Part shown: piece by piece, positions 3,801-54,757 of the stretch
Layout: every line of letters starts with the position of its first letter
Position numbering within the stretch: the stretch's first letter is position 1
Assembly: GCA_016710285.1 (NCBI GenBank)
Contig: JADJXR010000001.1
Coordinates: 3,573,232-3,637,231 of the forward strand
Length of the DNA stretch: 64,000 nucleotides
DNA from: Chlorobiota bacterium
GTDB lineage: Bacteria; Bacteroidota; Ignavibacteria; OLB7
Reading direction: 5' to 3'
The notes under the pieces: model-generated
Seen by the model: the letters and a program-made list of their open reading frames with translations, nothing else
The model's database searches: none
Told to the model about the DNA's origin: nothing
Made by a program: the position numbers and the translations under genes

Positions 3801-3991
3801 CTGCCGAAGAGATGGAGGCCGCAGCGGCGGCGGTGGAAGCCGGCGGCGAAGAACCAGCACCACGCGGCGGCGGCGAATCGCAGCAGCCAGCAATCCAGAC
3901 GATGATGCGGGAGCAGCCCAAGATTGGCCGCAACGACCCTTGCTTCTGCGGCAGTGGGAAGAAATACAAGCATTGCCACGGGCGCTCCTGA
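829..3991 (+). CDS. secA: Preprotein translocase ATPase SecA, interrupted by an apparent -1 frameshift near 2926
   Basis: The N-terminal 732-aa ORF (829..3027) carries the DEAD motor and preprotein cross-linking domains ([10 protein letters not shown]..., [22 protein letters not shown]). The C-terminal ORF (2837..3991, other frame) continues [20 protein letters not shown] and ends in the Zn-finger [13 protein letters not shown]. The frames meet in the run cagggacccggggtcc. Confidence 0.9.
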
Positions 3992-16284: not shown

Positions 16285-16535
16285 ACATCAGGGTTGCGAC
16301 TACACAGGTAGCCGCCCCGACCTCCGTCGGGGTTGATAAAAGGTCTTTAGCCTTCGGTGTCATCTGACTGGGCCCCGATAAAGATCGTGGCCGCTACCGT
16401 TCCGAAACTGCTGCCGCACAGGTAGCCGAAGGTCTTTAGCCTTCGGTGTCTTAGCCTTCGGCGTCATCTGACTGGGCCCCGATAAAGATCGGGGCCGCTA
16501 CCGTTTCGACAGATCGGGGTCGCTACCACCGGTGT
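16285..16535. repeat. Dispersed copies (about two units) of the 118-bp hairpin-repeat family found in tandem at 50160..51010
   Basis: Contains GTAGCCG(C/T)CCCGAC-NNNN-GTCGGG(A/G)TTGATAAAAGGTCTTTAGCCTTCGG and GGCCCCGATAAAGATCG(G)GGCCGCTACC modules. It lies between the convergent 3' ends of the thiolase and rlmD genes. Confidence 0.7.
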
Positions 16536-19685: not shown

Positions 19686-19706
19686 TCACCAACAATCAAA
19701 CAACAA

Positions 19707-20624: not shown

Positions 20625-20638
20625 CCAAACTGCGCATT

Positions 20639-22558
20639 TCAACGTGGCGGAAGTTGAGCTGGCGGGGGCAATGCCGGAAGAAAAAAGTATTCCCCGCCAA
20701 GCTGCTCGGCCAATCGAACCGCGTCGGAGTTCTGGCTGAATCGTTCGCGGGTGTCAATCACCACCGAACGCACCCCCGCGCGGCGATACGCTTCCCCAAT
20801 TTTTTGCATCTCCTCCTGCACCGTTTTGCGGCGCACTTCGCGGATCATTGCTGCGGATCCTGGCTCCAGCGGGACGTTGGCGCGCCCGTCGGTTAGGATC
20901 ACCACCAATGCTTGCTCGTTCCCCCGAATCCGCTCCCGCTCGGCAATCGAAAGGGCCATCACCAGCGATGAACCCAACGGAGTTCCGCCGCCGGTTGGCA
21001 TCCGGTCCAGCGAACGCTTTGCCCGCTCGACGGAGCTTGTTGGGGGGAGCAGAAGCTCGGCCTGGCTTCCCCGGAATCCAATCATCGCCACGCGGTCGCG
21101 GCTGATGTAGGCGGTTTGCAAAATTCTTCCTGCCACCCCTTTTGCCTCGCGGATTCGGTTGGTTGCCATGGATCCGCTGCTGTCAACGCAGAAAATGAAC
21201 AGCGTTCCGGCACGCTCGGAGAACTCCTTGATTCGCAGGTCGCCCTTTCGGATTCGTATCCAATCTCCATCCCCGCTCCTTCTGGATTGCTGGTGCGGGG
21301 CCGCTGCGCGAAGGGTTGATAGAAGGTCAATCCGCCTTCCGGCAAGCTCCCCCTCGGTTGTGCGGACGTGCCGCCCACGCAGCACCTGTTTGCGCGTCCC
21401 CCGCTTCCCCGATTCCAGCCCCAGGGCCTGCTGGAAAAACGCCAGCAGTGGCGGTATCGGCGCGGTGAAATCAATCGGGTCGAACAGCTGCTCGGCCCCG
21501 GTTTGCGATTCGCCGATCGTGCTTGCCTCCTCGGTTGGTTGCTCATCTTGCCTCCCTTCGGCTTGCTCGCCTTCCCCTTCGGCCTCGGTTTCGCTGGCCG
21601 CAGCTTCGCTGGTTGGCGCGGTTCCGCTTTGCTGGATTGGTGGCTCCTCCGCTTCCGGTTGCTGGGGGCCGGGCTGGGTTGGGTCCGGGATGTTTTGGGT
21701 GCGCGGAGCAAGCACCGTGGCGATTGCAAAGCTCACATCGGCTTCCTCAACCACCATGGATTGGCGAAGTGCCGCGTGCGCCCGCGCAGCTTTTGCCGCA
21801 AAGATCAGCCCCCGCTGGCCGGCCACCTGCAACGCCGCCGCCGCTTCTATCAATTGCTCGATTGCAAGATCGCCGACTCGAACCCGGGGCCAGCTAAGGC
21901 GGGCGTTCAGCACCTGCTCGGCAATGCGTTGCTCATGCCCGGAATATCGCTGGGTGGTCTGCTGTGGCGATGCCGCGAACTCCTGGCGCAGCCGCAGCAA
22001 TCGCCCTACGTGCTCGGCTGGAAGCCTCCGCTCTTGAGCGATAAGAAAGGGGATTTTGTCGGCAAGGGCTTGTTGGATTGGGCGTTCGGAAGGGACCGCG
22101 GTTGCCAGCAGGGAGAAGCGTGCGGGGAAGAACTGGCCAAATCCTTCGCGCTGGCAATTCACCATTCCGGAATCCAACGCTTGGCCAATCGTGGCGGCGG
22201 TTGCGGGGTCCAGAAGCGGAAGATTATCAACGATGAGTATGCCGCCATTGGCCGCCGGAAGTATCCCGGGTTGCAGCACGGGCGTGCCGTGGGCGATTGT
22301 TGCATCAAAGTCAATCCCGCCAATCAGGCGGTCGTGGGTGATGCCCAACGGCAGGCGGGCAACGGGCATTTGGGGATCAATCTGGGCCAGAACAAACTGG
22401 CTGAAACTGGAAAGGAGTTGCGATTTGCCAACGCCCACCGGCCCAGAGATCACCACCCCGCAGAGCGTTGGATCCACCAGCGTGCACAGCAATGCCCGCC
22501 GCGCCATTCCGTACCCAAGAAACGCGCTGAATGGAAGGGAATACAAGGAGTGGAGCAA
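20639..22558 (-). CDS. Magnesium-chelatase subunit D (BchD/ChlD)-family protein: degenerate AAA+ N-domain, Pro/acidic linker, C-terminal vWA
   Basis: N-terminal LPFSAFLGYGMARRALLCTLVDPTLCGVVISGPVGVGKS, an acidic proline-rich linker, and a vWA domain with the MIDAS motif DSSGSM. Confidence 0.7.
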   Translation of the reverse strand: MLHSLYSLPFSAFLGYGMARRALLCTLVDPTLCGVVISGPVGVGKSQLLSSFSQFVLAQIDPQMPVARLPLGITHDRLIGGIDFDATIAHGTPVLQPGILPAANGGILIVDNLPLLDPATAATIGQALDSGMVNCQREGFGQFFPARFSLLATAVPSERPIQQALADKIPFLIAQERRLPAEHVGRLLRLRQEFAASPQQTTQRYSGHEQRIAEQVLNARLSWPRVRVGDLAIEQLIEAAAALQVAGQRGLIFAAKAARAHAALRQSMVVEEADVSFAIATVLAPRTQNIPDPTQPGPQQPEAEEPPIQQSGTAPTSEAAASETEAEGEGEQAEGRQDEQPTEEASTIGESQTGAEQLFDPIDFTAPIPPLLAFFQQALGLESGKRGTRKQVLRGRHVRTTEGELAGRRIDLLSTLRAAAPHQQSRRSGDGDWIRIRKGDLRIKEFSERAGTLFIFCVDSSGSMATNRIREAKGVAGRILQTAYISRDRVAMIGFRGSQAELLLPPTSSVERAKRSLDRMPTGGGTPLGSSLVMALSIAERERIRGNEQALVVILTDGRANVPLEPGSAAMIREVRRKTVQEEMQKIGEAYRRAGVRSVVIDTRERFSQNSDAVRLAEQLGGEYFFLPALPPPAQLPPR

Positions 22559-22616
22559 TGTTGGCCGCGGTTAGTTGTTGGTTGCTGAAAAATGTTTTTA
22601 GTTAGCACGCACCGAA

Positions 22617-23819
22617 ATGAACCTTACCGTCCACGAGTATCAAGAAAGCCAATTCACCTGCCAGCAGATTAGCAGCCGGCAGGGGGCCGTTCTGTGGGAA
22701 AACTACGGAACCTATCTAACGGTCATGGCTCCCTCGCTGACCACCAACAACCGGTGGGTGCTGCGGCCACAGGGGTGGGTGGGGAGCATTGTGGTTGATG
22801 CCGAACTGTGCGTGATGTTGCAGCCGAAGTTGCCCGTTGCCAACATCTTCGCAATGCTTGAATATGCCTACCGGCTGAAAAGTTTTACGGTGCTGGAGGG
22901 GGTGGCTTCGCTCCGCACGGTGGAGGAGATGTTCCAGCAGCTTGCCACCATTTTTGCCAAGCGTGTGCTGGACCGGGCGCGGATTGGGCTGCACCAGCAA
23001 TATGTTGAACGCACCGAGCAATCGCCCTACGTCCGTGGCAGGGTTGACCTTCCGGAAAACTGGCGTGGGCCGCACCGCCACCCGCCAAGCTCGCGGTTCC
23101 AGGAGCGGACCGCCAACTGCGAGGATAACCAGATTATCGCCTTCACGTTGCAAACATTGGCGCGGCATCGCTTGGCCGAGCGTGTGGCAAGCAGCGTCCG
23201 CACGGCGTTGCGCCTGTTTGCGGGGGGGATCACCCGGGCATTCTTTCACCCAACCGACTGCACCAACCGCCACTACTCCCGGCTGAACAGCGATTACCGA
23301 ATCCTGCACGCGCTTTGCCGTTTTTTCTTGGAGCACTCCGGCCCAACCCATGAGTTTGGCGACCGCGCCATGCTTCCATTTCTGGTGAATATGGGCCGGC
23401 TGTTTGAGCTGTTTGTGGCCGAGTGGCTGCGCTGCCATCTTCCGGAAGGGTTCCGGCTGGTGACGCAGGAGCGCGTTGCGGCGGACGTTGCCGGGGCATT
23501 CCCCATCACCCTGGATATGGTGATCTACCAAGCCGGAAGCGACACGCCCGTGCTGGTGGTTGACACCAAGTATAAAATTGGCGACCGCCCTTCCCCCGAG
23601 GACCTTCAGCAGATTGTGGCCTACTCCGTTGCGCGGGGCTGCGCCAATGCTGTGCTGATCTATCCAACCAAACTGCGCCACCCGTTCAACGGGCGATATG
23701 GCCGAAGCCCAGTTGCTATCCGAACCGTGGCCTTCACCATCGAAGGGGACGTTGAGCAGGGGGGAAGGGAGATGCTGGTTGAGTTGCTGCGGGGCGTTTC
23801 AACTCACCCATCCGATTGA
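22617..23819 (+). CDS. mcrC: McrC-family (McrBC 5-methylcytosine restriction system nuclease subunit-like) PD-(D/E)xK protein, with no adjacent McrB
   Basis: N-terminal LPVANIFAMLEYAYRL resembles E. coli McrC IPVRNIYYMLTYAWGY. C-terminal ITLDMVIYQ...VLVVDTKYK resembles METDITI...ILIVDAKYY (PD...DxK). Confidence 0.6.
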   Translation: MNLTVHEYQESQFTCQQISSRQGAVLWENYGTYLTVMAPSLTTNNRWVLRPQGWVGSIVVDAELCVMLQPKLPVANIFAMLEYAYRLKSFTVLEGVASLRTVEEMFQQLATIFAKRVLDRARIGLHQQYVERTEQSPYVRGRVDLPENWRGPHRHPPSSRFQERTANCEDNQIIAFTLQTLARHRLAERVASSVRTALRLFAGGITRAFFHPTDCTNRHYSRLNSDYRILHALCRFFLEHSGPTHEFGDRAMLPFLVNMGRLFELFVAEWLRCHLPEGFRLVTQERVAADVAGAFPITLDMVIYQAGSDTPVLVVDTKYKIGDRPSPEDLQQIVAYSVARGCANAVLIYPTKLRHPFNGRYGRSPVAIRTVAFTIEGDVEQGGREMLVELLRGVSTHPSD

Positions 23820-25888
23820 ATCCGCAGGCGGTAGTTCCGAACCTCCGTCAGCCCGGGGTGTTGCGCCGGTTGGCAGCGGATGGTGCGCCCACCATACACC
23901 AGGTCGAAATAATCATCGCGCTCGTTGGTGTCCTCCTGCTCGTTGAAGTAGATGAACAGTTCATCGGTCCCATGCAAACGGCAGCGGCAGCTGATGGTGT
24001 AGGGATAGAAAATCGGCCCATGCTCCAGCAGCGATTGATAATCGCGAGCTTCCTCCATCAACGTCACCTCGGCTTTGGCCGCAAACTGCTCGATCTCGGC
24101 ATAGAGTGTCTCAAAATTTTTGCGGCTTCCTCCTTCTCCGGTCAGTGCCGTCAAGGCAAGGTCAATGTAGTCGGCGGCTGAGGTTTCTTCTCCGGTTGGG
24201 GGGGCGTTGGCAACCGATCCATCGCTTGGATCGGCGGCGGTGGCAGCACCGGCGGCGGTTTGCCGGCGGACCTCGTTCAAGGCAATGTAGAACGATCGCG
24301 AAAGCCGAAGCTCCTGGACGATGCGGGGATAATGCGCCATCATCTCAATAATCGCCGCGCCATGCCGGGCATCGGCCCCGGCCGATTGCAACTGGGCCTG
24401 CTGCCCGCGAATTCCGGCGAACATCCGTTGCGGTGTGGGGGAAGCAATCGTCAGGCTTGGGAAGGTGATGGTCCCTTGCTCAACCGCTTCGTGGAACAGC
24501 GCGGCGCAGGCAAGATGAAATTGCAGCCGAAGGAAATGCAACGCCTGCATGTACTGTTGCTCCACCGGGCCGGCCTGCAGGATGTCGAACAACTGCTCGC
24601 GCAGCCATCCCAGCCGGATTTTTTTTGCGCGGCGGCGCCGGCTGATGTCGCGGGACAACTCGATCCCTTTTTGCAGCAGCTCGAATGTTGGTATCGCCAG
24701 CAGCACCGCCGTGAATGGGGTGTAGATGGAGAACTTGTACGTGGTGTAGCGGAACGCCAGCACCGGAAGCAGGACTGCCAAAAACAGGAAGAGGAAGAAG
24801 AGTGAGTATTGGCTGATGGTCCGTAGCGTTGGGCGGCGCACGTTGCTTACGCGGGATCGCAGCAGCAGGAAGACCGTGGCGATTGCAATCCCCACCATGA
24901 TGTTCACGTAGGGGGCAACCACCTCAACAACCCGCCCCTGCAACATGGTGTTGACGATGTTGGCATGGATCCCCACGCCGTGCATATCGGGAAGCGCGTT
25001 CTTTCCGTTTTTCAGCGGCGTAAAAAAACGATCCACGATGGAGGTGATTTGGGAATTGCGGATGTCGGCATAGCCCACCAGCACAGCCTTCCCGGCCAGC
25101 TGCTGCCGGAATGCTTCCACCGCGCTGCTCTCCCCCTGCATTGCCGCGGCAAACACCGCCTCCAACGGAATCGTCGGGAATATCTGCTTCCCGCCACCGT
25201 TGTCCCCTTCGGATTCCTCGCCGATGCCGCCGGCGTAATCAATCACAAACGTTTTTTGGGAGAAGGAGGTGGCCACCGCAGCCGCGTTGCTATCAATGGC
25301 GCGGGCAATTTTTACGTCGAACGATTCAAACTTGACGGAATCTGCCTGGCCCCACAGCACGGTGTAGGTGCGGATTGTTTTGTCGTCGTCGGGCTGAAGG
25401 TTGATGCAGCCAAGCTGCGCTCCGTTCAGCTTGAAAAGGGGAGGGGGGATTCGGAATCGCTTCAGGCTGTCCTCGTAGAAGATGCCGAACATCAGGTTGG
25501 GGTGCGCCTCGATCAATGCGGCCAACATTGCGTCGCCGTCGGGGGATTCGGGGCGTTCATCTTCCAGCAAAAAATCAACGGCAACGATTGCGGGCTTTAA
25601 ATCCAGCACTGCGGCAAGCCGGGTTGCAAGAAGTGCGCGGTCCACACGGTCGGTGCTGTCGAACAGCGTGCGGTCGTAGGTCAGGACCCGGATGTTGGTG
25701 TCAATCGGAAGCTCGCCACGGGTTTGCAGCACCAGATCGGTGAAATTCTGGTCGTTCATCGCCACCTCGACCACGTCGAATTGTGGCAGGTCCTGGGAGT
25801 ATTGGGAGAAGATGGCAACCCCCACCGCCGCCGCCAGAATCAGCCCCCAGCGGCGAGCATCCATCCGAAATGTTTGGCGCAGTGACAC
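23804..25888 (-). CDS. CHASE2 sensor-domain membrane protein with an unrecognised cytoplasmic C-terminal domain
   Basis: Periplasmic CHASE2 region (VLTYDRTLFDST...AIVAVDFLLEDE...), three to four TM helices, then a roughly 300-aa C-terminal region with no kinase, cyclase or GGDEF motifs. Confidence 0.6.
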   Translation of the reverse strand: MSLRQTFRMDARRWGLILAAAVGVAIFSQYSQDLPQFDVVEVAMNDQNFTDLVLQTRGELPIDTNIRVLTYDRTLFDSTDRVDRALLATRLAAVLDLKPAIVAVDFLLEDERPESPDGDAMLAALIEAHPNLMFGIFYEDSLKRFRIPPPLFKLNGAQLGCINLQPDDDKTIRTYTVLWGQADSVKFESFDVKIARAIDSNAAAVATSFSQKTFVIDYAGGIGEESEGDNGGGKQIFPTIPLEAVFAAAMQGESSAVEAFRQQLAGKAVLVGYADIRNSQITSIVDRFFTPLKNGKNALPDMHGVGIHANIVNTMLQGRVVEVVAPYVNIMVGIAIATVFLLLRSRVSNVRRPTLRTISQYSLFFLFLFLAVLLPVLAFRYTTYKFSIYTPFTAVLLAIPTFELLQKGIELSRDISRRRRAKKIRLGWLREQLFDILQAGPVEQQYMQALHFLRLQFHLACAALFHEAVEQGTITFPSLTIASPTPQRMFAGIRGQQAQLQSAGADARHGAAIIEMMAHYPRIVQELRLSRSFYIALNEVRRQTAAGAATAADPSDGSVANAPPTGEETSAADYIDLALTALTGEGGSRKNFETLYAEIEQFAAKAEVTLMEEARDYQSLLEHGPIFYPYTISCRCRLHGTDELFIYFNEQEDTNERDDYFDLVYGGRTIRCQPAQHPGLTEVRNYRLRIQSDG

Positions 25889-37026: not shown

Positions 37027-38526
37027 ATGAAGATTGCTTATTTCGATTGTTTCTCAGGAATCAGCGGCGATATGGCCGTTGGGGCATTGCTTGATGCTGG
37101 GGTGCCGCTTGGCGTGGTCCAGGAGGGGCTTGCGCGGATTGGGCTTTCCCCAAGCCAGCTGACGGTGCGCACCCGCTCAATCAGCCGCAGCCAAATCCAC
37201 GCCACAAAGTTCGATGTCCTTCGGCCCGATGGTGCCATCTTCGACGCGGAACCGGCGGAGCATCACCACCATCATCATGGCGACCACGATCACTCACACG
37301 ACCACGGCCATTCGCACGGTCACGGTCACTCGCACAGCCACGGTCACTCGCACGATCACGACCACTCGCACGGCCATTCACACGATCACAGCCACTCGCA
37401 CAGCCACGATCACTCACACGGCCATTCCCACGATCACGGCCACTCGCACAGCCATGCCGTAGCTGAAGTGATGGATGGCGAGAAGGCCCAGGGGGATGCT
37501 CATCACCACCATCACCACCACCATCACCATCATCACGGCAGTTATGCCGAGATCATTGCGTTGATTGATGGGAGCAGTTTGGAGGAGGGGGTGAAGGAGC
37601 GCGTCCGCAAAATTTTCCGGACGATTGCCATTGCCGAAGGGCGCATCCACAACATGGACCTGAGCGAGGTCCATTTCCACGAAGTCGGCGCGTTAGACTC
37701 CATTGCCGACATCGTTGCGGTGGCGCTCTGTTTGGAGCATTTGCGGGTGGAGCAGGTCTATTCCTCGGTGGTTCCGTTGGGTTCGGGGGGGATGATCCGG
37801 ACGCAGCATGGGGTGATGCCGCTTCCCGCCCCGGCCACGCTGGAAATCTTGAAAGGCTACCCCGTCACCCTGACGAACATCCCGATGGAGCTAACCACCC
37901 CAACCGGCGCGGGAATCTTGAAAGCCCTTTCGCGCGGGACGATTGAGCTTGAGCGTTTGCAGGTGGAGCGCGTGGGGTTCGGGGCCGGCACTCGCGAGCT
38001 TCCGGATCGCCCAAACCTGCTGCGGGTGGTGATTGGCGAGATAATCGGCGAGGAAGAGTTCGACACCGTCACGCTGATTGAAACGAACATTGATGACATG
38101 AACCCCCAAGTCTATCCCTTCTTGCTGGAGCGGTTGCTGGAGTCGGGGGCAATGGAGGCGTACCTGACCCCGGTCATCATGAAAAAAGGGCGGCCCGGGA
38201 TGGTGCTGTCGGTGCTGGCTCCGCACGGTGCGGTGGATGAGCTTACCAAAGTGATCTACCGCGAGACCACCACCATCGGGGTCCGTTACCAAACCCTTAC
38301 CCGGCGCAAACTGATCCGCGAGGAGATTCTAACCCCGTCGGAATTTGGCGTGGTTCGGATGAAGAAAATCAACAGCGCGGGGGAGCTTCGGGTGATACCG
38401 GAGTACGACGAAGCAAAGCGAATCGCCCGCGAGCGTGGGTTGCCGCTGCAGACCGTGCTTCGCAAACTTGGCGACGTTGCGCGCCAGGCCGCCAGCAAGC
38501 TGGCGGAAACCTCACCCGAGCTGTAG
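37027..38526 (+). CDS. larC: LarC-family nickel-insertion protein (DUF111) with a long His-rich insert
   Basis: MKIAYFDCFSGISGDM start. Conserved HFHEVGALDSIADIV. About 90 aa of (H-D/S/G)n and a H12 run. Confidence 0.75.
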   Translation: MKIAYFDCFSGISGDMAVGALLDAGVPLGVVQEGLARIGLSPSQLTVRTRSISRSQIHATKFDVLRPDGAIFDAEPAEHHHHHHGDHDHSHDHGHSHGHGHSHSHGHSHDHDHSHGHSHDHSHSHSHDHSHGHSHDHGHSHSHAVAEVMDGEKAQGDAHHHHHHHHHHHHGSYAEIIALIDGSSLEEGVKERVRKIFRTIAIAEGRIHNMDLSEVHFHEVGALDSIADIVAVALCLEHLRVEQVYSSVVPLGSGGMIRTQHGVMPLPAPATLEILKGYPVTLTNIPMELTTPTGAGILKALSRGTIELERLQVERVGFGAGTRELPDRPNLLRVVIGEIIGEEEFDTVTLIETNIDDMNPQVYPFLLERLLESGAMEAYLTPVIMKKGRPGMVLSVLAPHGAVDELTKVIYRETTTIGVRYQTLTRRKLIREEILTPSEFGVVRMKKINSAGELRVIPEYDEAKRIARERGLPLQTVLRKLGDVARQAASKLAETSPEL

Positions 38527-48357: not shown

Positions 48358-48796
48358 CAGGGGAATCACACAGGTGAACAACAGCGGAACCATCCTTCTT
48401 CAAAAGCGATTTTTCACCGACAAGGGGGAACTATCGTTGCTTCTGCGCGAGCTTGAGCGGCTGCGCCCGCAGATGCCGCTTAGCAACGACCAGTTCCACA
48501 ACTTGGTGATTGCCATGACCGAAGCGGTCAACAACGCGATTGTTCACGGCAACCAGTTGGACCCCTCCAAATCGGTCTTCTACCAAATCTCCGCAACCGA
48601 GGATGGAGTTTTTTGCACGATTGAAGATGAGGGGGAAGGCTTCACGCTGGAAGACCTTGCCAACCCCATCAGCCCCGAAAATCTGTTGATGGAAAGCGGG
48701 CGCGGGATGTTCATTATCGGCGCGCTGATGCGGGACCTGAAGGCGGTGAAAACCGAGCGCGGGATGCGGGTGGAGTTCCTGTGTGCCGCAGGGTGA
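48338..48796 (+). CDS. RsbW-like anti-sigma regulatory factor / serine-protein kinase (HATPase_c_2)
   Basis: Conserved N-box AVNNAIVHGN and G-box IEDEGEGF...GRGMFII. Confidence 0.55.
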   Translation: MPDFNFSRGITQVNNSGTILLQKRFFTDKGELSLLLRELERLRPQMPLSNDQFHNLVIAMTEAVNNAIVHGNQLDPSKSVFYQISATEDGVFCTIEDEGEGFTLEDLANPISPENLLMESGRGMFIIGALMRDLKAVKTERGMRVEFLCAAG

Positions 48797-48833
48797 GCTT
48801 CCATATCCCACCGCTCCCCGTGGCGCATCAACG

Positions 48834-50188
48834 ATGATGAACTCACCCTCTTCACCTCCTTTTTTGTGGGTTGGCGGCGCGGTCTTGCTTGCACTTGCGC
48901 CGCTTCCATGGTTGGGGGATTTGCGCGCAGAGTTCTGGAGCTATCTGGCCTTGATGCTTCTATCAACGGTGCTGCTTGGGGTTGGCTGCTGGCTGGGCTT
49001 CAGGGGAAGGGGCGGGGACCTTCCGATTCGCCACATTCTGCTGGTTGCCGGGCTGCTTCGCCTGGCCATGCTTCCCATGATGCCTTCCCTTTCCGACGAT
49101 GCCTACCGCTACGTGTGGGATGGGCGGCTGCTTCTTCACGGAGAAAACCCGTACCACGTCACCCCCACGGAAACAGCCTGGAGGGATGAGCTGTTCCAGC
49201 TTCAAGGCTACCCCACCACTCACACGATTTATCCCCCCGCCGCACAGCTTCTGTTTGCCGCCGCCGCTGCCGTTGGTGAATTTTTTGGAGGGGCTTGGCA
49301 ATGGAGTTTCCTTGCTTGGAAGTTGATGGTGATCGCTGCCGATCTGTTGGCGGTGTACTTGCTGCTGCGGCTGCTTCGCGCGCAAGGGGTTCCGCTGGTG
49401 CGGGGGGTGATGTATGCTTGGCATCCGTTGGTGGTGGTGGAGCTTGCGGGCCAGGGCCATACCGACGCGTTGTGGGTGTTGGCAATCGCGCTTGGGCTGT
49501 GGGGGTTCGCTTCCGGGGGGGCGGGGAAGGGGTTGCCGGCGGTGGTGGTTGGGGGCGCGGCGCGGGTGTTTCCGCTTGTTGTTGCTCCGCTTTGGTTCCG
49601 TTTTTTGCCGCGCCGTCAGCTTCTTGTTGCGGTTGCTTGCGCGGCGTGCGGCGCGCTTCTGTTTGCGCCGTTTCTGACCCCGTGTCGGTGGAGAATTATG
49701 TTCGGGTGATGCTCCGGTTCACCAATTACTACGAGTTCAACGGGGGGGCATATCAAGCGGTGAAATGGGTGTTCGATGAACTCCATCTTCAGCCATCGAA
49801 CAGGATAGCGGGGGGGATATTGTTAGGGGTGCAGCTTGCTGCGTTTGGCCTTCTTTGGTTGCTTCCGGTTGCCGAGCGGTCGGTGCGTTCGCTTGCGTGG
49901 CGGATGTTGCTGCTGCTCAGTTTCCAGATCGTGCTTCCGGCAAAGGTCCATGTGTGGTATTTCGTTGCCCCGCTGTTCCTGCTCCCGATAACGTGGGGGC
50001 GCGGGCTGCGTTGGGGGTGGTGGTGGCTTTGCGCCGTTGCCCCGCTGACCTACTTCGCCTACTCTGGCTTGGCGGTTCGCGAGCCAACGTGGCTGCTGGC
50101 CGTTGAGTGGGGCGGCTTCGCGCTGCTGGTGCTGGCCGAACAAATGCGCCGAAGCGCCGGTAGCCGTCCCGACCTGCGTCGGGATTGA
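48834..50188 (+). CDS. GT87/DUF2029-like integral-membrane glycosyltransferase, apparently frameshifted near 49668-49680
   Basis: DDAYRYVWDGRLLLHGENPYHVTP motif in frame with 48834. The C-half (VSVENYVRVMLRFTNYYEFNG...) is in ORF 49295..50188 in another frame. The junction is at the cccc run in ctgaccccgtg. The last 10 codons and the stop lie inside the first repeat unit. Confidence 0.55.
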
Positions 50189-51010
50189 TAAAAGGTCTTT
50201 AGCCTTCGGTGTGTCGTCACTGGGCCCCGATAAAGATCGAGGCCGCTACCCCGACAGAGTCAGGGCTGCTAGCGCAGTGGTAGCCGTCCCGACCTGCGTC
50301 GGGATTGATAAAAGGTCTTTAGCCTTCGGTGTGTCGTCACAGGGCAGGCTAAAGACCTGCCGCTACCCCGACAGAGTCGGGGCTGGCGGTGGAACAGGTA
50401 GCCGTCCCGACATACGTCGGGATTGATAAAAGGTCTTTAGCCTTCGGCGTGTCGTCACAGGGCAGGCTAAAGACCTGCCGCTACCCCGACAGAGTCGGGG
50501 CTGGCGGTGGAACAGGTAGCCGTCCCGACATACGTCGGGATTGATAAAAGGTCTTTAGCCTTCGGCGACTCACTCTTGAGAAAGACAGGGCAGGCTAAAG
50601 ACCTGCCGCTACCCCGACAGAGTCGGGCTGGTGGTGAGACAGGTAGCCGTCCCGACCTGCGTCGGGATTGATGTCAGGCTGGCGATGGAACAGGTAGCCG
50701 AAGGTCTTTAGCCTTCGGCGTGTCGTCACAGGGCAGGCTAAAGACCTGCCGCTACCCCGACAGAGTTGGGCTGGCGATGGAACAGGTAACCGTCCCGACA
50801 TACGTCGGGATTGATAAAAGGTCTTTAGCCTTCGGCGTGTCGTCACTGGGCAGGCTAAAGACCTGTCGCTACCCCGATAGAGTTGGGCTGGCGGTGGAAC
50901 AGGTAGCCGTCCCGACATACGTCGGGATTGATAAAAGGTCTTTAGCCTTCGGCGTCATCCTCGCAAGAAAGACAGGGCAGGCTAAAGACCTGTCGCTACC
51001 CCGACTGGGT
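50160..51010. repeat. Tandem array of about eight copies of a roughly 118-bp GC-rich multi-hairpin repeat
   Basis: Units start at about 50161, 50281, 50399, 50517, 50644 (partial), 50693 (partial), 50786 and 50903. Each carries TCCCGAC-NNNN-GTCGGGA, AGGTCTTTAGCCT...AGGCTAAAGACCT and CCCCGAC-AGA-GTCGGGG palindromes. Confidence 0.85.
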
Positions 51011-51039
51011 TAGAGTAGATCGGCGCACCTGCAAACAAC

Positions 51040-51066
51040 AAGGCCCAGCCAATAATGGCCGGGCCT
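51040..51066 (-). terminator. Terminator-like hairpin for the minus-strand lipoprotein gene
   Basis: AAGGCCCGGCC-ATTATT-GGCTGGGCCTT followed by GUUGUUUG when read on the minus strand. Confidence 0.45.
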
Positions 51067-51106
51067 TTGTTCTAAAAAAAACTTTGCGATGCTGTTGGCT
51101 GCGCAA

Positions 51107-51559
51107 TTACGGGTTGCGGCGGACGCTTGATTCCTGCGAGCTGCTGTTGCTGCTGCTTGGCGTGCGGCGGACGCTTGATTCTTGCGAGCTGTTGGTGCTT
51201 CCACCGCGGCGAACTTCCGATTCTTTTGCGGTGTTCTGCCCCGGGCGGCGTGTTTCCGATTCGGCTGGCTTATTCTCCGAAGGCTTCGCGGTGGATTTTG
51301 CTGCCGCGCCCTTGTCTTTGTCGCCGTGATCGTGGCCATCGTGGTCATCATGCTTCATCGCTGCCGAGTCAGGCTTCATTGCGGAGTCGGCCTTCGCGGT
51401 GTCCATCGGGGTTGGCGTTGGCATTGGTGCGGGGGCTGGCATGGTCATCGTGTCTTTCTTTGTGGTGTCGGTTGCCGGTGGCTCTTCCGACTTTTTGCCG
51501 CAGGCCACAAACGTCAGTGTGGTAAGGGCCAGGGTTAGGATAATCGAGCGTGTTTTCAT
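51107..51559 (-). CDS. Small lipoprotein with a His/Asp-rich segment and C-terminal tandem repeats
   Basis: Lipobox LTFVACGKK. AMKHDDHDGHDHGDKDK. C-terminal ...SSQESSVRR... repeated, encoded by tandem roughly 54-bp DNA repeats at 51110-51220. Confidence 0.45.
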   Translation of the reverse strand: MKTRSIILTLALTTLTFVACGKKSEEPPATDTTKKDTMTMPAPAPMPTPTPMDTAKADSAMKPDSAAMKHDDHDGHDHGDKDKGAAAKSTAKPSENKPAESETRRPGQNTAKESEVRRGGSTNSSQESSVRRTPSSSNSSSQESSVRRNP

Positions 51560-51774
51560 GGTTGGTTGTTCGGATAAACTTGAATGGTTGGATGCTTCTT
51601 GCATAAGCCGCCGCAAAGATAGCAGATGCAAAGCGAAGTGCTGTGAGGAATTTTCGCGCCCGAAGATTAACCGTGGGATCAACCCCACCCTGAACCCCTT
51701 CTCGCCTAACGTTCTGCTACATATTCCCCCTGCGTAACGGCGTGCGTCGCGGGCTATATTTGCAGCCCGCAAAC

Positions 51775-51848
51775 GGGGTTATGGCACAGTTGGTTAGCGC
51801 GCTTCCTTGACATGGAAGAGGTCACAGGTTCGAGTCCTGTTAACCCCA
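51775..51848 (+). tRNA. tRNA-Val (anticodon GAC)
   Basis: Acceptor GGGGTTA/TAACCCC, D-arm GCACAGTTGGTTAGCGC, anticodon stem CTTCC/GGAAG with loop TTGACAT, T-arm CAGGTTCGAGTCCTG. Confidence 0.88.
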
Positions 51849-51850
51849 CA

Positions 51851-51892
51851 AACAACGGCGATTCCGCAAATGGAGTCGCCGTTGTTTTTTTT
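51851..51892 (+). terminator. Rho-independent terminator after tRNA-Val
   Basis: AACGGCGA-TTCCGCAAATGGAG-TCGCCGTT stem followed by T8. Confidence 0.7.
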
Positions 51893-51962
51893 GATGGTGG
51901 AATCATTCTTTCCGCTGTGGAAGGGGGAAGGAATGCGTAATCTTTCCGGTATCCAAGCCGAT

Positions 51963-52875
51963 ATCATCAAGAAGGTAGCCGCCCCGACCTCCGTCGGGAT
52001 TGATAAAAGGTCTTTAGCCTTCGGTGTTCAGGCCGCGTTGGCTCCGTGCGTTGCTCCCCCTCTTGGGAGGGGCTGGGGGGTGGGTTTGGGGACACCCGCG
52101 AACCGGGTGTTGCTTTCCCGAATCTCAGGATCAGAAACTTCCCGTGCCACCGCAACCCCCGCGCCCTGCATTGCTTCCCCCGAACCCACCCCGCCCTATC
52201 GGGCACCCCTCCGTTGGAGGGGGACTACTTGTGAGGGTTCGGAGAAAACTCGCGGACGGGCTTGTGGGCGGCTCCCCCTCTTGGGAGGGGGCTAGGGGGT
52301 GGGTTTGGGGACACCCGCGAACCGAGCGTTGCTTTCCGAATCTCAGGATCAGGCAGGGCGGGGTAGTCGCAGGTCTTTAGCCTGCGCGGGGACACCCGCG
52401 AACCGGGCATTGCTTCCCGAATCTCAGGATCAGAAACTTCCCGTGCCACTGCAACCCCCGCGCCCTGCATTGCTTCCCCCGAACCCACCCCGCCCTATCG
52501 GGCACCCCTCCGTTGGAGGGGGACTACTTGTGAGGGTTCGGAGAAAACTCGCGGACGGGCTTGTGGGCGGCTCCCCCTCTTGGGAGGGGGCTAGGGGGTG
52601 GGTTTGGGGACACCCGCGAACCGAGCGTTGCTTTCCGAATCTCAGGATCAGGCAGGGCGGGGTAGTCGCAGGTCTTTAGCCTGCGCGGGGACACCCGCGA
52701 ACCGGGCATTGCTTCCCGAATCTCAGGATCAGAAACTTCCCGTGCCACTGCAACCCCCGCGCCCTGCATTGCTTCCCCCGAACCCACCCCGCCCTATCGG
52801 GCACCCCTCCGTTGGAGGGGGACTACTTGTGAGGGTTCGGAGAAAACTCGCGGGCGGGCTTTGTCAGACTTTCAG
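51963..52875. repeat. One family-1 partial unit followed by about 2.8 tandem copies of a roughly 299-bp composite GC-rich repeat
   Basis: Exact 299-bp periodicity: identical ORFs 52225..52488 and 52524..52787, and 52299..52679 versus 52598..52888. Internal palindromes CCCCTCTTGGGAGGGGG and CCCCTCCGTTGGAGGGGG. Twice-per-unit motif GGGGACACCCGCGAACCG...TCCGAATCTCAGGATCAG. Also contains GCAGGTCTTTAGCCTGC. Confidence 0.8.
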
Positions 52876-53502
52876 TTTCAAAAAATAAAGGTCGTTGATG
52901 TTATCCCACAAAAAAACATGGTCTTGTTTAAGTGAAAGGTCTGGTCCGTATGGTCTTTCTGTTTTATACCGTAGGATAGTTCCTGATTTATATTCTTTGC
53001 CGTGTCGAAAATCAAAATCTGATGTGTCTGGCGAATAGTTGCCCTGGTTGTAATAATGTGAATGATCTGTTGCAAGAATAAAATAGCAAAGGTCAATGCC
53101 ATGATCTTTGTATAATTCAAGGTTTGAAATGTCCTTGAATACATCATAACGATTATTAGGTTCTCGGTGATTCTCTTTCTTGAAAAACTTTAGTTCAAAA
53201 GCTGCTTTCGTTACAGTGCTATTGTCTTGGTAGCTTATCAGTATATCCACTCTTGCTCTGTCGGATTTGCTTTTTATGCTTGCTTCGTTGAGTGAAACGT
53301 ATGTCTCGAATTCAAGGTGAAATTTGTCAGCAAGTCTAAATTCATACAACCGCCCCAAAGTTTTTAGGATGTGTCCAAATTCAAGTTGAAAAGCATTTTC
53401 ATTTCTTGCTGTCAGCCCGCCAAAAGCAAGTTTATGAGTCAGGAGCTTGTATGCTGTCTCAATAATTTCTTCTGTCAGTCTAATTTGGTTTTCTTTTAGC
53501 AT
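52864..53502 (-). CDS. Hypothetical protein with a PD-(D/E)xK-like motif
   Basis: Low-GC codon usage. Segments FQLEFGHIL ... RVDILISYQDNSTVTKAAFELKFFK fit an E...D...ExK restriction-endonuclease-like pattern. Confidence 0.35.
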   Translation of the reverse strand: MLKENQIRLTEEIIETAYKLLTHKLAFGGLTARNENAFQLEFGHILKTLGRLYEFRLADKFHLEFETYVSLNEASIKSKSDRARVDILISYQDNSTVTKAAFELKFFKKENHREPNNRYDVFKDISNLELYKDHGIDLCYFILATDHSHYYNQGNYSPDTSDFDFRHGKEYKSGTILRYKTERPYGPDLSLKQDHVFLWDNINDLYFLKLKV

Positions 53503-53597
53503 TTATCAGGACGATGGTGCTTTATTCTCAACGCAAATGCGTTTTTTATTTTCAAGAACAGCAAGTGAGAGAAGGTCTTTAGTCTTCGGTTGTAAAA

Positions 53598-54089
53598 TCA
53601 GACCCCATGGTTAGCAACATTGTTTGTGATTTCGCTGGGGAGCAAGCTGTGCAAGTCAAACAACGGGAGGATAAGATTGGCGAAAGGAGTATTGGCAAGT
53701 TTGCTAAGTAGCAAACCTCGTGTGGTTCCTACAGATGCGCTGGTCATCGTCGCAGCAATCCATCCGGGAATTTCAATATTTCCCCCTGATTCCTTTAGGC
53801 CATGGATCTGATACTTGGAATTGGTTGTGATTGATGCCAGCATCCCTGATTTTGATTTTTTGTGTCCTTCCCATGAAATTTCTACAGAGATGATGAGCGT
53901 GGATGTCGCACCAGTAGCAGCATTAATACTACGCCGCACAGTGATGGCATAATGAATTCCACTGATCTCAGCTGGATCCGGATTGGAAATCTCGAATGTC
54001 TCAACGGAGCAGTCAGCAAAAACAAGGCCGATTGGGGGCGCGGCGGGGGGAGCATCTCCATTTTTAGAGCGAGAGTTTTTCTTGGCCAT
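53598..54089 (-). CDS. Hypothetical protein (163 aa), no recognisable domain
   Basis: ORF in the AT-rich island, co-directional with the TA genes. Low-complexity N-terminus. Confidence 0.3.
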   Translation of the reverse strand: MAKKNSRSKNGDAPPAAPPIGLVFADCSVETFEISNPDPAEISGIHYAITVRRSINAATGATSTLIISVEISWEGHKKSKSGMLASITTNSKYQIHGLKESGGNIEIPGWIAATMTSASVGTTRGLLLSKLANTPFANLILPLFDLHSLLPSEITNNVANHGV

Positions 54090-54564
54090 AGCTCTGCGAT
54101 TTTTGAGTTTTTGAAGAGATCATTTCGTTAGAATTATTAACGACAAGGGTTCCGAACTCATTGACGCTTTGTGAGCTTAGATGGAATGATTCAGAAGAAG
54201 AGAGCGGGGTGTTTGTCTTCCCGTAGGTGATAATGGTGGTTATGGAGCCATCACTATTTTTTAGTTTTTCAATCTGCCTGGTAAACGCTGTTGAGGCCAC
54301 GGCTTCGGGGAAATTTTGAGCTACTTCCAGCAACCGCCGCGCCGGTCCTTTTGGGCGGCGGCGGCCTTGTTCCCAGCCTTCAAGGGTGCGCTGGCTAATG
54401 CCCAGCATCAGCGCAAATTTTGCTTGGGACATCCCCATTTTGTTCCGAATCTCCTTCGCATCAGGAATTTGGTAGTAGGTAATGCGCGATGGCTGCTTTT
54501 TGCCTGCGCGTATCTCCTGCAAGTCGGAAAGTGCATGTTCCAACGATGTCAATAAGCTATCCAT
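54064..54564 (-). CDS. HTH (XRE-like) antitoxin, HigA-2/NadS-like
   Basis: IRNKMGMSQAKFALMLGISQRTLEGWEQGRRRPKGPARRLLEVAQNFPE matches antitoxins paired with Gp49/HigB-2-type toxins. It overlaps the toxin-like ORF by 8 nt. Confidence 0.6.
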   Translation of the reverse strand: MDSLLTSLEHALSDLQEIRAGKKQPSRITYYQIPDAKEIRNKMGMSQAKFALMLGISQRTLEGWEQGRRRPKGPARRLLEVAQNFPEAVASTAFTRQIEKLKNSDGSITTIITYGKTNTPLSSSESFHLSSQSVNEFGTLVVNNSNEMISSKTQKSQSYGQEKLSL

Positions 54565-54757
54565 GAAGATTTTTAATAATGGTTTGAAGGATGGTTATTT
54601 CTTCTCTTGTGAGGTCGCTTTTCTGCCGCTTGCTGTATGCCGCAATCAGGTAGATATCCCCTTGTCTGCTCCGATAGTAGTAGATCACCCTTGCACCGCC
54701 ACGTTTGCCCCCTTTATGTTGCTCCGTTAATGCCTCAAAGATAGCATGGTGTTTCAC
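54557..54757 (-). CDS. RelE/ParE-superfamily (Gp49/HigB-2-like) toxin, N-terminally short (66 aa, GTG start, in-frame stop immediately upstream)
   Basis: GGARVIYYYRSRQGDIYLIAAYSKRQKSDLTREEITILQTIIKNL matches the conserved C-terminal half of HigB-2/Gp49-like toxins. Confidence 0.5.
   Translation of the reverse strand: MKHHAIFEALTEQHKGGKRGGARVIYYYRSRQGDIYLIAAYSKRQKSDLTREEITILQTIIKNLHG

Follow-up and report, generated by a model that had tools for sequence, protein, structure and literature searches.

A probable BIME-like cluster of GTAG-tagged extragenic palindromes between convergent genes of an uncultured Kapabacteria lineage

What kind of element is the array of hairpin-forming repeats, about 850 bp long, that separates two convergent genes in the window (the whole 64-kb stretch of DNA that was analysed)? 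The host is an uncultured Kapabacteria ("Chlorobi OLB7") lineage, in which such repeats have not been described previously. The array is likely to be a BIME-like cluster of GTAG-tagged repetitive extragenic palindromes (REPs). The repeats are probably ordinary selfish DNA palindromes that are moved by a transposase.

The array lies, as the earlier note stated, at a convergent gene junction, which has the following parts:

48885..50188, + strand: MptA_B-family glycosyltransferase gene, upstream of the array, split by a frameshift in the window assembly
50159..51005, no strand: the likely BIME-like tandem cluster, delimited by Tandem Repeats Finder, module coordinates, unit alignment and the independent contig L051
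51040..51067, no strand: hairpin terminator common to the convergent genes, downstream of the array
51107-51688, - strand: 193-aa gene

The last codons and the stop of the MptA_B-family gene fall inside the first unit of the array. In the strain represented by contigs L039 and L043, the TAG within the first GGTAGCC serves as this stop codon. Because the array is situated after this stop codon and before the shared terminator, it is probably transcribed as the 3' untranslated part of the MptA transcript. The repeat period of 117-120 bp is not in frame and the array is thus non-coding.

A regular-expression scan of the window finds eight units headed by GGTARCC, with GGTARCCG heads at 50159, 50279, 50397, 50515, 50642, 50693, 50785 and 50902, spaced by 120, 118, 118, 127, 51, 92 and 117 bp. 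Tandem Repeats Finder divides the array into a stretch of period 118 (50159-50672; 4.3 copies, 89% matches, score 715) and one of period 117 (50701-50955; 2.2 copies, 96%, score 475). The units are as follows:

50159-50278: U1
50279-50396: U2
50397-50514: U3
50515-50641: U4
50642-50692: U5a, truncated, 51 nt
50693-50784: U5b, 92 nt, lacking hairpin A, with a "double-foot" GGTAGC...GCTACC
50785-50901: U6
50902-51005: U7

The previous count of about eight copies of a 118-bp repeat is a fair one, as the eight heads represent six full units and one unit split into U5a and U5b. Pairwise identity among the full units is 72-97%, with U2 and U3 being 97% identical.

The basic element of the array, which can be read on either strand, is about 26 nt long and consists of GGTAG(C/T), a stem of 6-8 bp, a TCTTTA(G) loop and the complementary stem (type I). 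Each unit contains two type I elements arranged tail-to-tail in inverted orientation around a variable spacer of 12-22 nt, forming a REPIN-like doublet. The whole doublet can alternatively form a single long hairpin with GGTAGC...GCTACC at its ends, and U5b is predicted to fold as a "double-foot" GTAG...CTAC hairpin. Between successive doublets lies a conserved head-to-head spacer with a palindrome of a second kind, CCCCGAC-AGA-GTCGGGG. Most units have a further copy of this second family (type II, with a YCCCGAC stem) within the stem of the + strand REP, into which it was apparently inserted. A + strand head and a - strand head alternate in every unit, across seven modules. The "three hairpins" of the earlier note are a simplification of these two hairpin families. 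The modules are located as follows:

50693..50720, + strand: intact type I REP, GGTAG-CCGAAGG-TCTTTAG-CCTTCGG(C), with an 8-bp perfect stem
16421-16448: second intact copy of the same REP
50192-50206, 50312-50326, 50430-50444, 50548-50562, 50818-50832, 50935-50949, 16340-16354 and 52007-52021, + strand: B cores of eight more type I copies, in which a 25-nt type II module stands between GGTAGCCG and AAGG
50341..50367, - strand: type I REP module C1 of U2, GGTAGC-GGCAGG-TCTTTAG-CCTGCC
50463-50477, 50591-50605 and 50734-50748, - strand: C1 cores of U3, U4 and U5b
50851-50865 and 50978-50992, - strand: C1 cores of U6 and U7, with one G>A change
50222..50250, - strand: type I REP variant C2 of U1, GGTAGC-GGCC(T)CGA-TCTTTA-TCGGGGCC, with one stem mismatch
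16474-16502: intact copy of C2
16370-16398: copy of C2 with one mismatch
50167..50184, + strand: type II hairpin (module A), YCCCGAC-NNNN-GTCGGGR, after GGTAGCCG and before TTGATAA
50167, 50287, 50405, 50523, 50650, 50793, 50910, 16315 and 51982: copies of module A
50367..50396, + strand: head-to-head spacer, consisting of hairpin D (CCCCGAC-AGA-GTCGGGG, stem as in type II) followed by CTGGCGGTGGAACA
50207..50221, no strand: variable tail-to-tail spacer V between two inverted type I REPs, from the unit alignment

The head-to-head spacer connects the foot of each doublet (GCTACC) with the head of the doublet after it (GGTAGCC). Only U2 and U3 keep this spacer intact, and it has decayed in the rest. 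Hairpin D, previously placed in every unit, is complete in those two units only and elsewhere has suffered C>T changes or the loss of one nucleotide. The GCTACC...GGTAGC enclosure is found throughout the array, as had been stated, and TCCCGAC-NNNN-GTCGGGA occurs in it seven times with CTGC or ATAC loops. The 13-bp inverted repeat AGGTCTTTAGCCT/AGGCTAAAGACCT, claimed for each unit, is present in U2-U7. The second central form, CCCCGA-TAAAGA-TCGGGG, does exist and is intact at 16480-16491, but within the array it is confined to U1 and has one mismatch. Spacer V is 12 nt long in most units and 22 nt long in U4 and U7, with differing sequences (CGACTCACTCTTGAGAAAGACA, CGTCATCCTCGCAAGAAAGACA). The AAGG-TCTTTAG-CCTT hairpin is the "CUAAAGA-loop" hairpin seen on the opposite strand.

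Two candidate signals were rejected. A CGTC tag on hairpin A (GCCGTCCCGAC) was discarded, as its T/C is part of the stem and the outer pair covaries from T-A to C-G. By eye, TTGATAAAAGG does not fit the IHF consensus WATCAANNNNTTR.

The same hairpins are found at other intergenic sites of the window:

16297..16530, no strand: second locus, of two units
51974..52025, + strand: solitary head, type II hairpin and type I core, downstream of tRNA-Val and its terminator
52088..52861, no strand: separate 299-bp tandem array, 2.6 copies, 98%
52363 and 52662, + strand: type I REP with a fourth stem, GGTAGT-CGCAGG-TCTTTAG-CCTGCG, in each 299-bp unit
Heads at 52228, 52527 and 52826, - strand: third GTAG-tagged hairpin type, GTAG-TC-CCCCTCC-AAC-GGAGGGG, in each 299-bp unit

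In total, four loci with about 25 tagged hairpins are seen within the window. All copies of the family lie between genes or after a tRNA, with U1 overlapping just the last codons and stop of the MptA gene. The 16297-16530 locus is situated between a convergent thiolase gene (ending at 16274) and a tRNA-U5-methyltransferase-like gene (ending at 16553). Two further assemblies have this locus in identical form, and there are other short-read contigs that break within its first head.

The association of tag and hairpin is far from what is expected by chance. There are 19 matches to GGTCTTTAGCC, compared with 0.74 expected, and nine to CCCGACNNNNGTCGGG, compared with 0.32. Of 252 GTAGs, 25 (10%) stand before a perfect hairpin of 6 bp or more, while eight control tetranucleotides give 1-7 such cases; 20 of the 25 fall in the three intergenic repeat loci. 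Every TCTTTA-loop hairpin in the repeat loci with a stem of at least 4 bp has GGTAG on its 5' side on its own strand, except for the interrupted copies, in which GGTAGCCG precedes the type II module instead. When a unit is folded as single-stranded DNA, z is -6.8 for one strand and -7.7 for the other. The named structure has 90.8% of its cells paired, a value that falls to 30-47% if the partners are slid. The palindromic units are 26-29 nt long, within the 20-40 nt range by which REPs are recognised.

Four versions of the type I stem are found: CCGAAGG/CCTTCGG, GGCAGG/CCTGCC, CGCAGG/CCTGCG and GGCCCCGA/TCGGGGCC. Double changes that keep the pairing distinguish these versions at five positions of the stem; tag and loop do not vary. 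These compensatory changes were read directly from the hairpin listings and not from pair counts in an alignment, because MAFFT loses register between the 6-nt-loop C2 and the 7-nt-loop variants. Covariation inside the array is weak, since its units were duplicated recently: double changes are confined to the outer pair of hairpin A (UA in six copies and CG in two; T-A in the array and C-G at 16315), and 18 of 500 shuffles attained the covariation score. It is therefore the four stem classes, a small sample, that carry the structural argument. The view that structure is conserved over sequence was right, and is extended by the opposite-strand AAGG-TCTTTAG-CCTT hairpin and by the fourth stem, CGCAGG/CCTGCG, of the 299-bp array.

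The array is real. An independent contig (L051 from ENA, a k141 short-read assembly of another sample) reproduces U4-U7 and the right junction, and contigs from three strains enter its left end. A protein database search with the translated array ORF gave one match, which is the same locus in another sample. The independent support covers U4-U7, and the copy number of the near-identical U1-U3 comes from the window assembly alone. This assembly has indel errors (the SecA and MptA genes are both split by frameshifts), so that the one-nucleotide differences among units may be sequencing errors. That the array is an assembly artefact or a degenerate CRISPR-like array is scarcely credible despite these indels and the similarity of U2 to U3, given the contigs just described, variable parts of 4 nt and 12-22 nt in a mosaic of inverted hairpins, and the lack of any Cas-family Pfam match in the ORFs scanned; the earlier exclusion of CRISPR was correct. 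CRISPR arrays have direct repeats of 24-48 bp with unique spacers of about 26-72 bp, and usually cas genes.

The array varies between strains and species. In the strain of L039 and L043, the MptA stop is followed directly by a U5a/U5b-type junction and not by U1-U4. In the closest syntenic species (L050) the array is absent; the terminator is retained there directly after the MptA stop, at a distance of at most 24 nt. Such differences in the start and presence of the array are typical of BIME and REPIN clusters, although the 16.3-kb locus is invariant in the three assemblies compared. Short-read contigs of other strains (L039, L043, L049, L053, L057 and L058) end inside heads, and the contigs encoding the window proteins are mostly short and stop at repeats. 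Because short-read contigs break at the repeats, many genomic copies are suggested. GTAG-type REPs usually have more than 100 copies per genome.

The type I and type II hairpins all have a 5' GTAG tag on their own strand, are short palindromes with compensatory changes and occupy extragenic sites, all of which is characteristic of REPs. The regular alternation of orientation and the tandem repetition of a basic module are characteristic of BIMEs and REPINs. A point against a REP identity is the loop, whose 7 nt exceed the 2-5 nt usual among GTAG REPs (PMC3733652).

The organization of the array resembles that of the GTAG REP super-family (PMC3733652), whose dimers alternate in orientation, have variable tail-to-tail and conserved, structured head-to-head spacers and include heterodimers. 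The same dimer arrangement has been reported for BIMEs (PMC2817692). Both kinds of spacer and the heterodimers are found in the array. The super-family and the array also share stem-loops of 6-9 bp with an unpaired GTAG at their 5' foot, stems that vary within a family through compensatory changes, and a tendency to lie behind genes or where two genes converge (PMC3733652). The array differs in its invariant 7-nt TCTTTAG loop, as most GTAG REP loops are 2-4 nt long. The comparison with this super-family, for which 24 families are listed (PMC3733652), is one of anatomy.

The BIME-2 and atypical BIMEs of E. coli, in which Y and Z2 REPs alternate (PMC2817692), likewise have a tandem module with two oppositely oriented REPs and two kinds of linker. 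They too are extragenic and vary in copy number between strains. However, the REP sequences differ: those of E. coli are bulged, imperfect palindromes, while the array has short perfect stems and a second palindrome family nested within its module. The REPINs of Pseudomonas fluorescens SBW25 (Bertels & Rainey 2011, PMC3116915) also consist of two inverted REPs and a spacer, which can adopt a single long hairpin. They too are lineage-specific, are known as singlets, doublets and clusters, and are regarded as the entity that a single-copy RAYT mobilises (PMC3116915). Unlike them, the doublets of the array have arms with different stems (a heterodimer), and the C2-version doublet pairs only partly.

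The nearest taxonomic precedent is provided by the canonical and "double-foot" REPs of TnpA_REP subclass 2.4, reported from Cyanobacteria and Bacteroidetes (Quentin et al. 2018, PMC6006769). In U5b a 5' GT[AG]G and a 3' C[TC]AC similarly bound one hairpin. However, subclass 2.4 is defined by its protein, while the array family is known here from the repeats alone. The TnpA_REP of Stenotrophomonas maltophilia, which acts on Group 3 perfect-palindrome REPs, requires GTAG and a loop base for cleavage; a stem mismatch abolishes cleavage, but the stem sequence is largely replaceable (Corneloup et al. 2021, PMC8266576). This agrees with what is conserved across the four stem variants of the array: a perfect stem of replaceable sequence, with the tag and loop kept. 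The S. maltophilia element has an 8-bp stem and a 3-nt loop and belongs to a gammaproteobacterium, and the match is one of functional analogy only.

By analogy with these systems, the hairpins would form on single-stranded DNA at the replication fork, as for other GTAG REPs. A REP-associated tyrosine (HUH/Y1) transposase, encoded elsewhere in the genome, would recognise the unpaired GTAG tag and bases of the loop, and the stem would need only to pair. Cleavage and rejoining of the hairpins by this enzyme would seed new copies. The tandem array might then lengthen and shorten through the activity of that enzyme, or as units recombine unequally or slip against one another. Being in the 3' UTR, the array may incidentally affect mRNA decay, rather than having a conserved host function.

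No RAYT/Y1 transposase was found by Pfam scans of the window ORFs and of the genes beside the copy in contig L010. A tblastn search of 500 kb of sequence with the E. coli TnpA_REP (PDB 4ER8) had a best E of 0.5, amounting to nothing, and a scan of the same 500 kb for the HUH...Y motif gave no transposase. The genome is 4.35 Mb in size. There is a slim chance that the family is not serviced by a classical RAYT, and that some other protein recognises the invariant TCTTTAG loop, which is kept across four unrelated stems and whose 7 nt are unusual among GTAG REPs for their length. A new biological question would be opened only if the genome proved to have no RAYT.

A functional RNA had been proposed for the array. 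As a long 3' UTR or an independent sRNA, its CUAAAGA- and UCUUUAG-loop hairpins would act at the RNA level and might stabilise the MptA mRNA against 3' exonucleases, or serve as a protein sponge of the CsrB/RsmZ type. The probable transcription of the array, the stability of the hairpins (z about -7), the conserved loop on varying stems and the known action of REPs as RNA stabilisers (PMC3733652) are in agreement with this. Several decayed stems also keep G-U-compatible pairs on the + strand (GU/UG, helices 2 and 4). Other mismatches are C-A on that strand (U1, 51982), so that mismatch types (G-T or C-A) have no consistent strand bias and the result is mixed as to folding of DNA or RNA. A dedicated functional RNA is nevertheless unlikely, because tag and loop occur in both orientations in each unit: one transcript would carry UCUUUAG in half of its hairpins and CUAAAGA in the other half. 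There is no RNA rationale for an unpaired GTAG conserved 5' of the stem on each hairpin's own strand, nor does a functional RNA accord with the absence of the array in the nearest syntenic species and its differences between strains. The suggested Rfam comparison, run at the gathering threshold over the whole window and in E-value mode over 49900-53100, gave only two tRNAs and chance matches; those on the array have E of at least 0.36. Any effect on RNA would be secondary to a REP origin and not an alternative to it.

It is quite improbable that the array is a non-mobile local satellite, in which palindrome-rich intergenic DNA was amplified by slippage or unequal crossing-over without a transposase, perhaps as a binding array for a DNA-binding protein (a nucleoid protein or gyrase). 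Tandem repetition, a length that differs between strains and the lack of a transposase nearby would fit such an origin, and CGTC-type REPs have been reported without a dedicated transposase (PMC3733652). However, the same tagged hairpins are found in different combinations at three other, unlinked intergenic sites of the window, and contigs from elsewhere break at tagged hairpins. Slippage alone neither disperses elements nor explains a GTAG tag with compensatory stems.

The earlier note also called the array "REP/MITE-like". The first half of this name is supported by the 5' GTAG tags, the inverted pairs, the extragenic, dispersed and lineage-specific occurrence and the BIME-like clustering. 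A MITE derived from a DDE-type insertion sequence, with GGTAGC...GCTACC as terminal inverted repeats mobilised in trans and inserted repeatedly in tandem, is very unlikely. The units are non-coding, about 90-120 bp long and bounded by inverted ends of 6-8 bp, as a MITE would be, but neither the 16.3-kb cluster nor the array has a visible target-site duplication at its ends, and no DDE transposase is encoded in the window. What would be the inverted ends are GTAG tags that belong to two short hairpins, each independent of the other and also found alone (51974, 52363), and the mosaic, regularly alternating organization is that of BIMEs and not of MITEs.

REP, REPIN and BIME elements are familiar from Proteobacteria, and there are reports of them from a few other phyla. 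In the survey of Di Nocera, De Gregorio & Rocco (2013), GTAG REPs were found in Proteobacteria, Cyanobacteria, Chloroflexi and the PVC group, while Chlorobi and Bacteroidetes had only CGTC-type REPs (PMC3733652). The range of such elements is extended to Kapabacteria, the "Chlorobi OLB7" lineage of the Bacteroidota/Chlorobi group, by this clear family of GTAG-tagged repeats with its tandem modules in the BIME style. The repeats explain why short-read MAGs of a common anammox and activated-sludge organism are fragmented at these sites. The invariant tag and loop on freely co-varying stems are a natural illustration of the rules of perfect-palindrome REP recognition established in vitro.

The repeat matched no plasmid (blastn, distant mode). 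Searches of 185,579 species genomes and a metagenome set with the exact 18-mer core AAGGTCTTTAGCCTTCGG gave singleton, chance-level matches, with the exception of contig L010. This contig, assigned to Acidimicrobiia, ends in a near-identical head module. On the same slim chance as the reading without a classical RAYT, and if this placement is real, the family would be a palindrome system that spreads horizontally between phyla in wastewater and anammox communities.

Tandem Repeats Finder resolves the array into 4.3 copies of a 118-bp period at 50159-50672 (89% matches, score 715) and an adjoining 2.2 copies of a 117-bp period at 50701-50955 (96%). A module scan located eight GGTARCCG heads, spaced by 120, 118, 118, 127, 51, 92 and 117 bp, which begin units U1-U4, U5a (shortened), U5b (lacking hairpin A), U6 and U7:
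50159, 50279, 50397, 50515, 50642, 50693, 50785, 50902: GGTARCCG heads (n = 8)
The pairwise identity among full units is 72-97%. The window has 19 copies of the core 11-mer (expected, 0.74), the single-strand folds of the units have z of about -7 on either strand, and 90.8% of cells are paired in the named structure, compared with 30-47% in slid controls. The two arrays, the eight heads, the 11-mer excess and the fold scores confirm the tandem hairpin array described in the earlier note. All motifs listed there are present, but CCCCGAC-AGA-GTCGGGG is undamaged in U2 and U3 only, and CCCCGA-TAAAGA-TCGGGG has a single, mismatched copy in the array (U1), its undamaged copy being at 16480.

An assembly artefact is excluded: U4-U7 and the right junction recur in the ENA k141 contig L051, which was assembled from another sample. 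The left end of the array is entered by contigs of three other strains (L039, L043 and L049). The window assembly does carry indel errors of the kind typical of uncorrected long reads, as shown by two genes that are split by frameshifts: SecA (829-3991) into overlapping ORFs at 829-3027 and 2837-3991, and the MptA_B-family gene into 48783-49709 and 49295-50188, the latter gene being intact in other assemblies (426 or 434 aa). Single-nucleotide differences between units should therefore not be over-read.

Each TCTTTA with complementary flanks was scanned. Read on its own strand, every TCTTTA hairpin of the repeat loci consists of GGTAG(C/T), a stem, TCTTTA(G) and the returning stem (type I):
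plus strand: GGTAG-CCGAAGG-TCTTTAG-CCTTCGG
minus strand: GGTAGC-GGCAGG-TCTTTAG-CCTGCC
minus strand, alternative: GGTAGC-GGCCCCGA-TCTTTA-TCGGGGCC
neighbouring 299-bp array: GGTAGT-CGCAGG-TCTTTAG-CCTGCG
Tag and loop are unchanged across the four stems, which have diverged through compensatory paired substitutions at five positions. Since the own-strand readings agree, the "UAAAGA-loop hairpin" and the "AGGTCTTTAGCCT arm" of the earlier note are one element in opposite orientations.

A second palindrome family, YCCCGAC-N3-4-GTCGGGR (type II), forms hairpin D of the conserved spacer and recurs in a 25-nt module, hairpin A followed by TTGATAA, situated between GGTAGCCG and AAGG in nine of the 11 plus-strand heads. 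This module interrupts the type I hairpin in its lower stem; in the heads without it, at 16421 and 50693, the stem is a perfect 7-8 bp. The outer type II pair covaries, being T-A in the array and C-G at 16315 and in the contig L010. A third tagged hairpin, GTAG-TC-CCCCTCC-AAC-GGAGGGG, is found on the minus strand of every 299-bp unit. Of the 252 GTAGs in the window, 25 precede a perfect hairpin with 6 bp or more, compared with 1-7 cases for eight control tetranucleotides, and 20 of these 25 fall in repeat loci.

The 118-bp unit thus runs from the head through the type II insert and a rightward type I REP to a variable spacer of 12-22 nt, and then through a leftward type I REP and the foot (GCTACC) to the conserved spacer with its type II hairpin. 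When folded as DNA, the GGCAGG version forms a 13-bp hairpin from its two type I arms, the fold of U5b spans GGTAGC to GCTACC, and the arms of the CCCCGA version fold apart from each other.

The family is found at three further sites in the window, all extragenic:
16297-16530: two units, with a convergent thiolase gene on one side and a tRNA-methyltransferase-like gene on the other
51974-52025: solitary head, past tRNA-Val
52088-52861: 299-bp array, one type I copy per unit
An ENA contig and the original OLB7 MAG carry the 16.3-kb locus unchanged. Six more short-read contigs end within its first head, the expected effect of a multi-copy repeat on de Bruijn assemblies. The 299-bp array (2.6 copies, 98% identical) lies directly past tRNA-Val; its unit carries the GGTAGT-tagged type I and the third hairpin in opposite orientation, an internally duplicated 45-nt block (GGGGACACCCGCGAACCG...CTCAGGATCAG) and a CCCCCTCTTGGGAGGGGG hairpin. 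In other strains, short-read contigs (L024-L029) stop within this array.

The surroundings of the main array are as follows:
48885-50188, plus strand: MptA_B-family glycosyltransferase gene; the array begins at its stop codon
51040-51067: hairpin terminator, 35 bp past the array end, common to the MptA-family and convergent genes
51107-51688, minus strand: convergent 193-aa gene
51775-51849: tRNA-Val, beyond the convergent gene
The junction is therefore convergent, as had been proposed, with one terminator serving both genes. Because the array precedes this terminator, the MptA 3' UTR probably includes it. Exact protein matches assign the window to "Chlorobi bacterium OLB7" and to nearly identical MAGs, one of which has a 4.35-Mb contig, and the homologues of the upstream gene bear the names Candidatus Kapaibacterium or Kapabacteria. 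Its stop codon comes from the REP array (window 50159-50188; L039 12106-12110). In L039 and L043 the stop is the TAG within the first GGTAGCC, giving a protein of 426 aa. The frame of the window strain and L049, shifted by 1 nt relative to these, crosses hairpin A and stops at a TGA in GATTGATAA, giving 434 aa ending in ...SAGSRPDLRRD. The convergent gene contains a 24-nt imperfect tandem repeat (51125-51200, 3.2 copies) and encodes a protein of low complexity that is probably secreted, with a 142-aa homologue in L050.

In L039 and L043 the gene leads directly into a U5a/U5b-type junction with no U1-U4 in between, so that their array is either about four units shorter or differently arranged. 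A deletion between U1 and U5a would give this arrangement, as the CTGC loop is common to both units. L050, from the closest related species with a contig spanning the locus, is fully syntenic (MptA 73% identical) and has no array there: a homologous terminator at most 24 nt past the stop codon is followed by the small convergent gene and tRNA-Val, and the 299-bp array and AT-rich island are likewise absent. The 18-mer core occurs at chance level in 185,579 species genomes (one each) and a metagenome collection, with the exception of L010 (QWHP01000049.1). There, positions 1-60 contain a head module of 56 nt, made up of GGTAGCC, a type II hairpin and a type I core, which differs at one position from the window copy at 16307-16362. 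It lies at the extreme end of a contig whose GC is 0.64 and whose genes are Acidimicrobiia-like, the closest homologues being in Acidimicrobiia at 74% identity. Either the contig end is chimeric, with sequence of a co-resident Kapabacterium, or the family has spread across phyla.

GTAG REPs are short stem-loops with a terminal unpaired GTAG and 6-9 bp stems bearing complementary changes; they frequently form hetero-dimers, tail-to-tail with variable spacers or head-to-head with conserved, often structured ones, and tend to lie downstream of a gene or where two genes converge (Di Nocera et al., PMC3733652). BIMEs are REPs at regular spacing and alternating orientation, tandemly repeated as basic modules in BIME-2; altered REPs within them retain palindromy through complementary mutations, and their length differs extensively between strains (Nunvar et al., PMC2817692). 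The array matches these defining features, higher-order forms included. Canonical and "double-foot" (5' GTAG ... CTAC 3') REPs accompany TnpA_REP subclass 2.4, found in Cyanobacteria and Bacteroidetes (Quentin et al., PMC6006769). The invariant tag and loop, with stems free to vary if paired, reproduce the in vitro pattern of a perfect-palindrome REP, in which cleavage is lost when GTAG is mutated, nearly lost on a stem mismatch and dependent on one loop base, yet withstands exchanges of stem sequence (Corneloup et al., PMC8266576).

We consider it likely that the array is a BIME-like tandem cluster of a REP family not described before, in a Kapabacteria genome. The anatomy and dispersal of the elements are observed directly, as are their sites outside genes, their variation among strains and their lineage specificity; a RAYT link and a high copy number across the genome are presumed, which keeps confidence from being higher. 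By analogy with the family, the hairpins would form on single-stranded DNA, and a RAYT/TnpA_REP transposase encoded elsewhere would read tag and loop, cleave and rejoin, producing new copies. Unequal recombination, or the enzyme itself as modelled in PMC2817692, would amplify the tandem module. No Y1_Tnp domain was found in the scanned window ORFs or beside the L010 copy, and neither tblastn with E. coli TnpA_REP (the PDB 4ER8 sequence) nor an HUH...Y motif scan gave a match in the 500 kb searched. About one RAYT is expected per REP family, so that its absence from 64 kb of a 4.35-Mb genome is uninformative. The family should be useful for annotation and for explaining MAG fragmentation in this organism; only the lack of a RAYT in the genome would make it surprising.

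The functional RNA suggested earlier is disfavoured: each unit holds tag and loop in both orientations, the nearest relative has no array, there is no Rfam match and neither strand is favoured by the mismatch types. The array may incidentally affect mRNA stability, as other REPs are reported to do. A purely local satellite does not explain the dispersed copies in differing combinations. The earlier "REP/MITE-like" proposal is supported for REP, given the tag, dimers and dispersal, but not for a DDE-type MITE with GGTAGC...GCTACC as inverted ends, since there is no target-site duplication and these "ends" are separable tagged hairpins. A CRISPR array, already dismissed in the earlier note, is excluded by the unit alignment, which shows inverted hairpins and a variable spacer of 12-22 nt.

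Between the 299-bp array and uvrC lies an AT-rich island (52864-54600; GC 0.41, window 0.58) with three minus-strand genes, probably a small mobile or defence island beside tRNA-Val. They encode a 212-aa protein without Pfam or PADLOC family (a one-member cluster at 90% identity), a 163-aa protein matching the PADLOC candidate PDC-M64C (E = 3e-9) and a 166-aa HTH_3 regulator. A degenerate REP core (GAAGGTCTTTAGTCTTCGG) lies within the island at 53570. The 499-aa ORF at 37027-38526, with no Pfam family on record, contains dense in-frame tandem repeats (37281-37536; periods 6-48 nt; CAC/CAT/GAC-rich), and its predicted product looks like a histidine-rich repetitive protein. In the region 19000-24000, a stretch of reduced GC (0.49-0.52 at 19-21 kb) adjoins an AAA+/VWA protein (20639-22558, minus strand) and a McrBC-family protein (22617-23819, plus strand); the region matched no PADLOC model and may be a restriction or defence locus.
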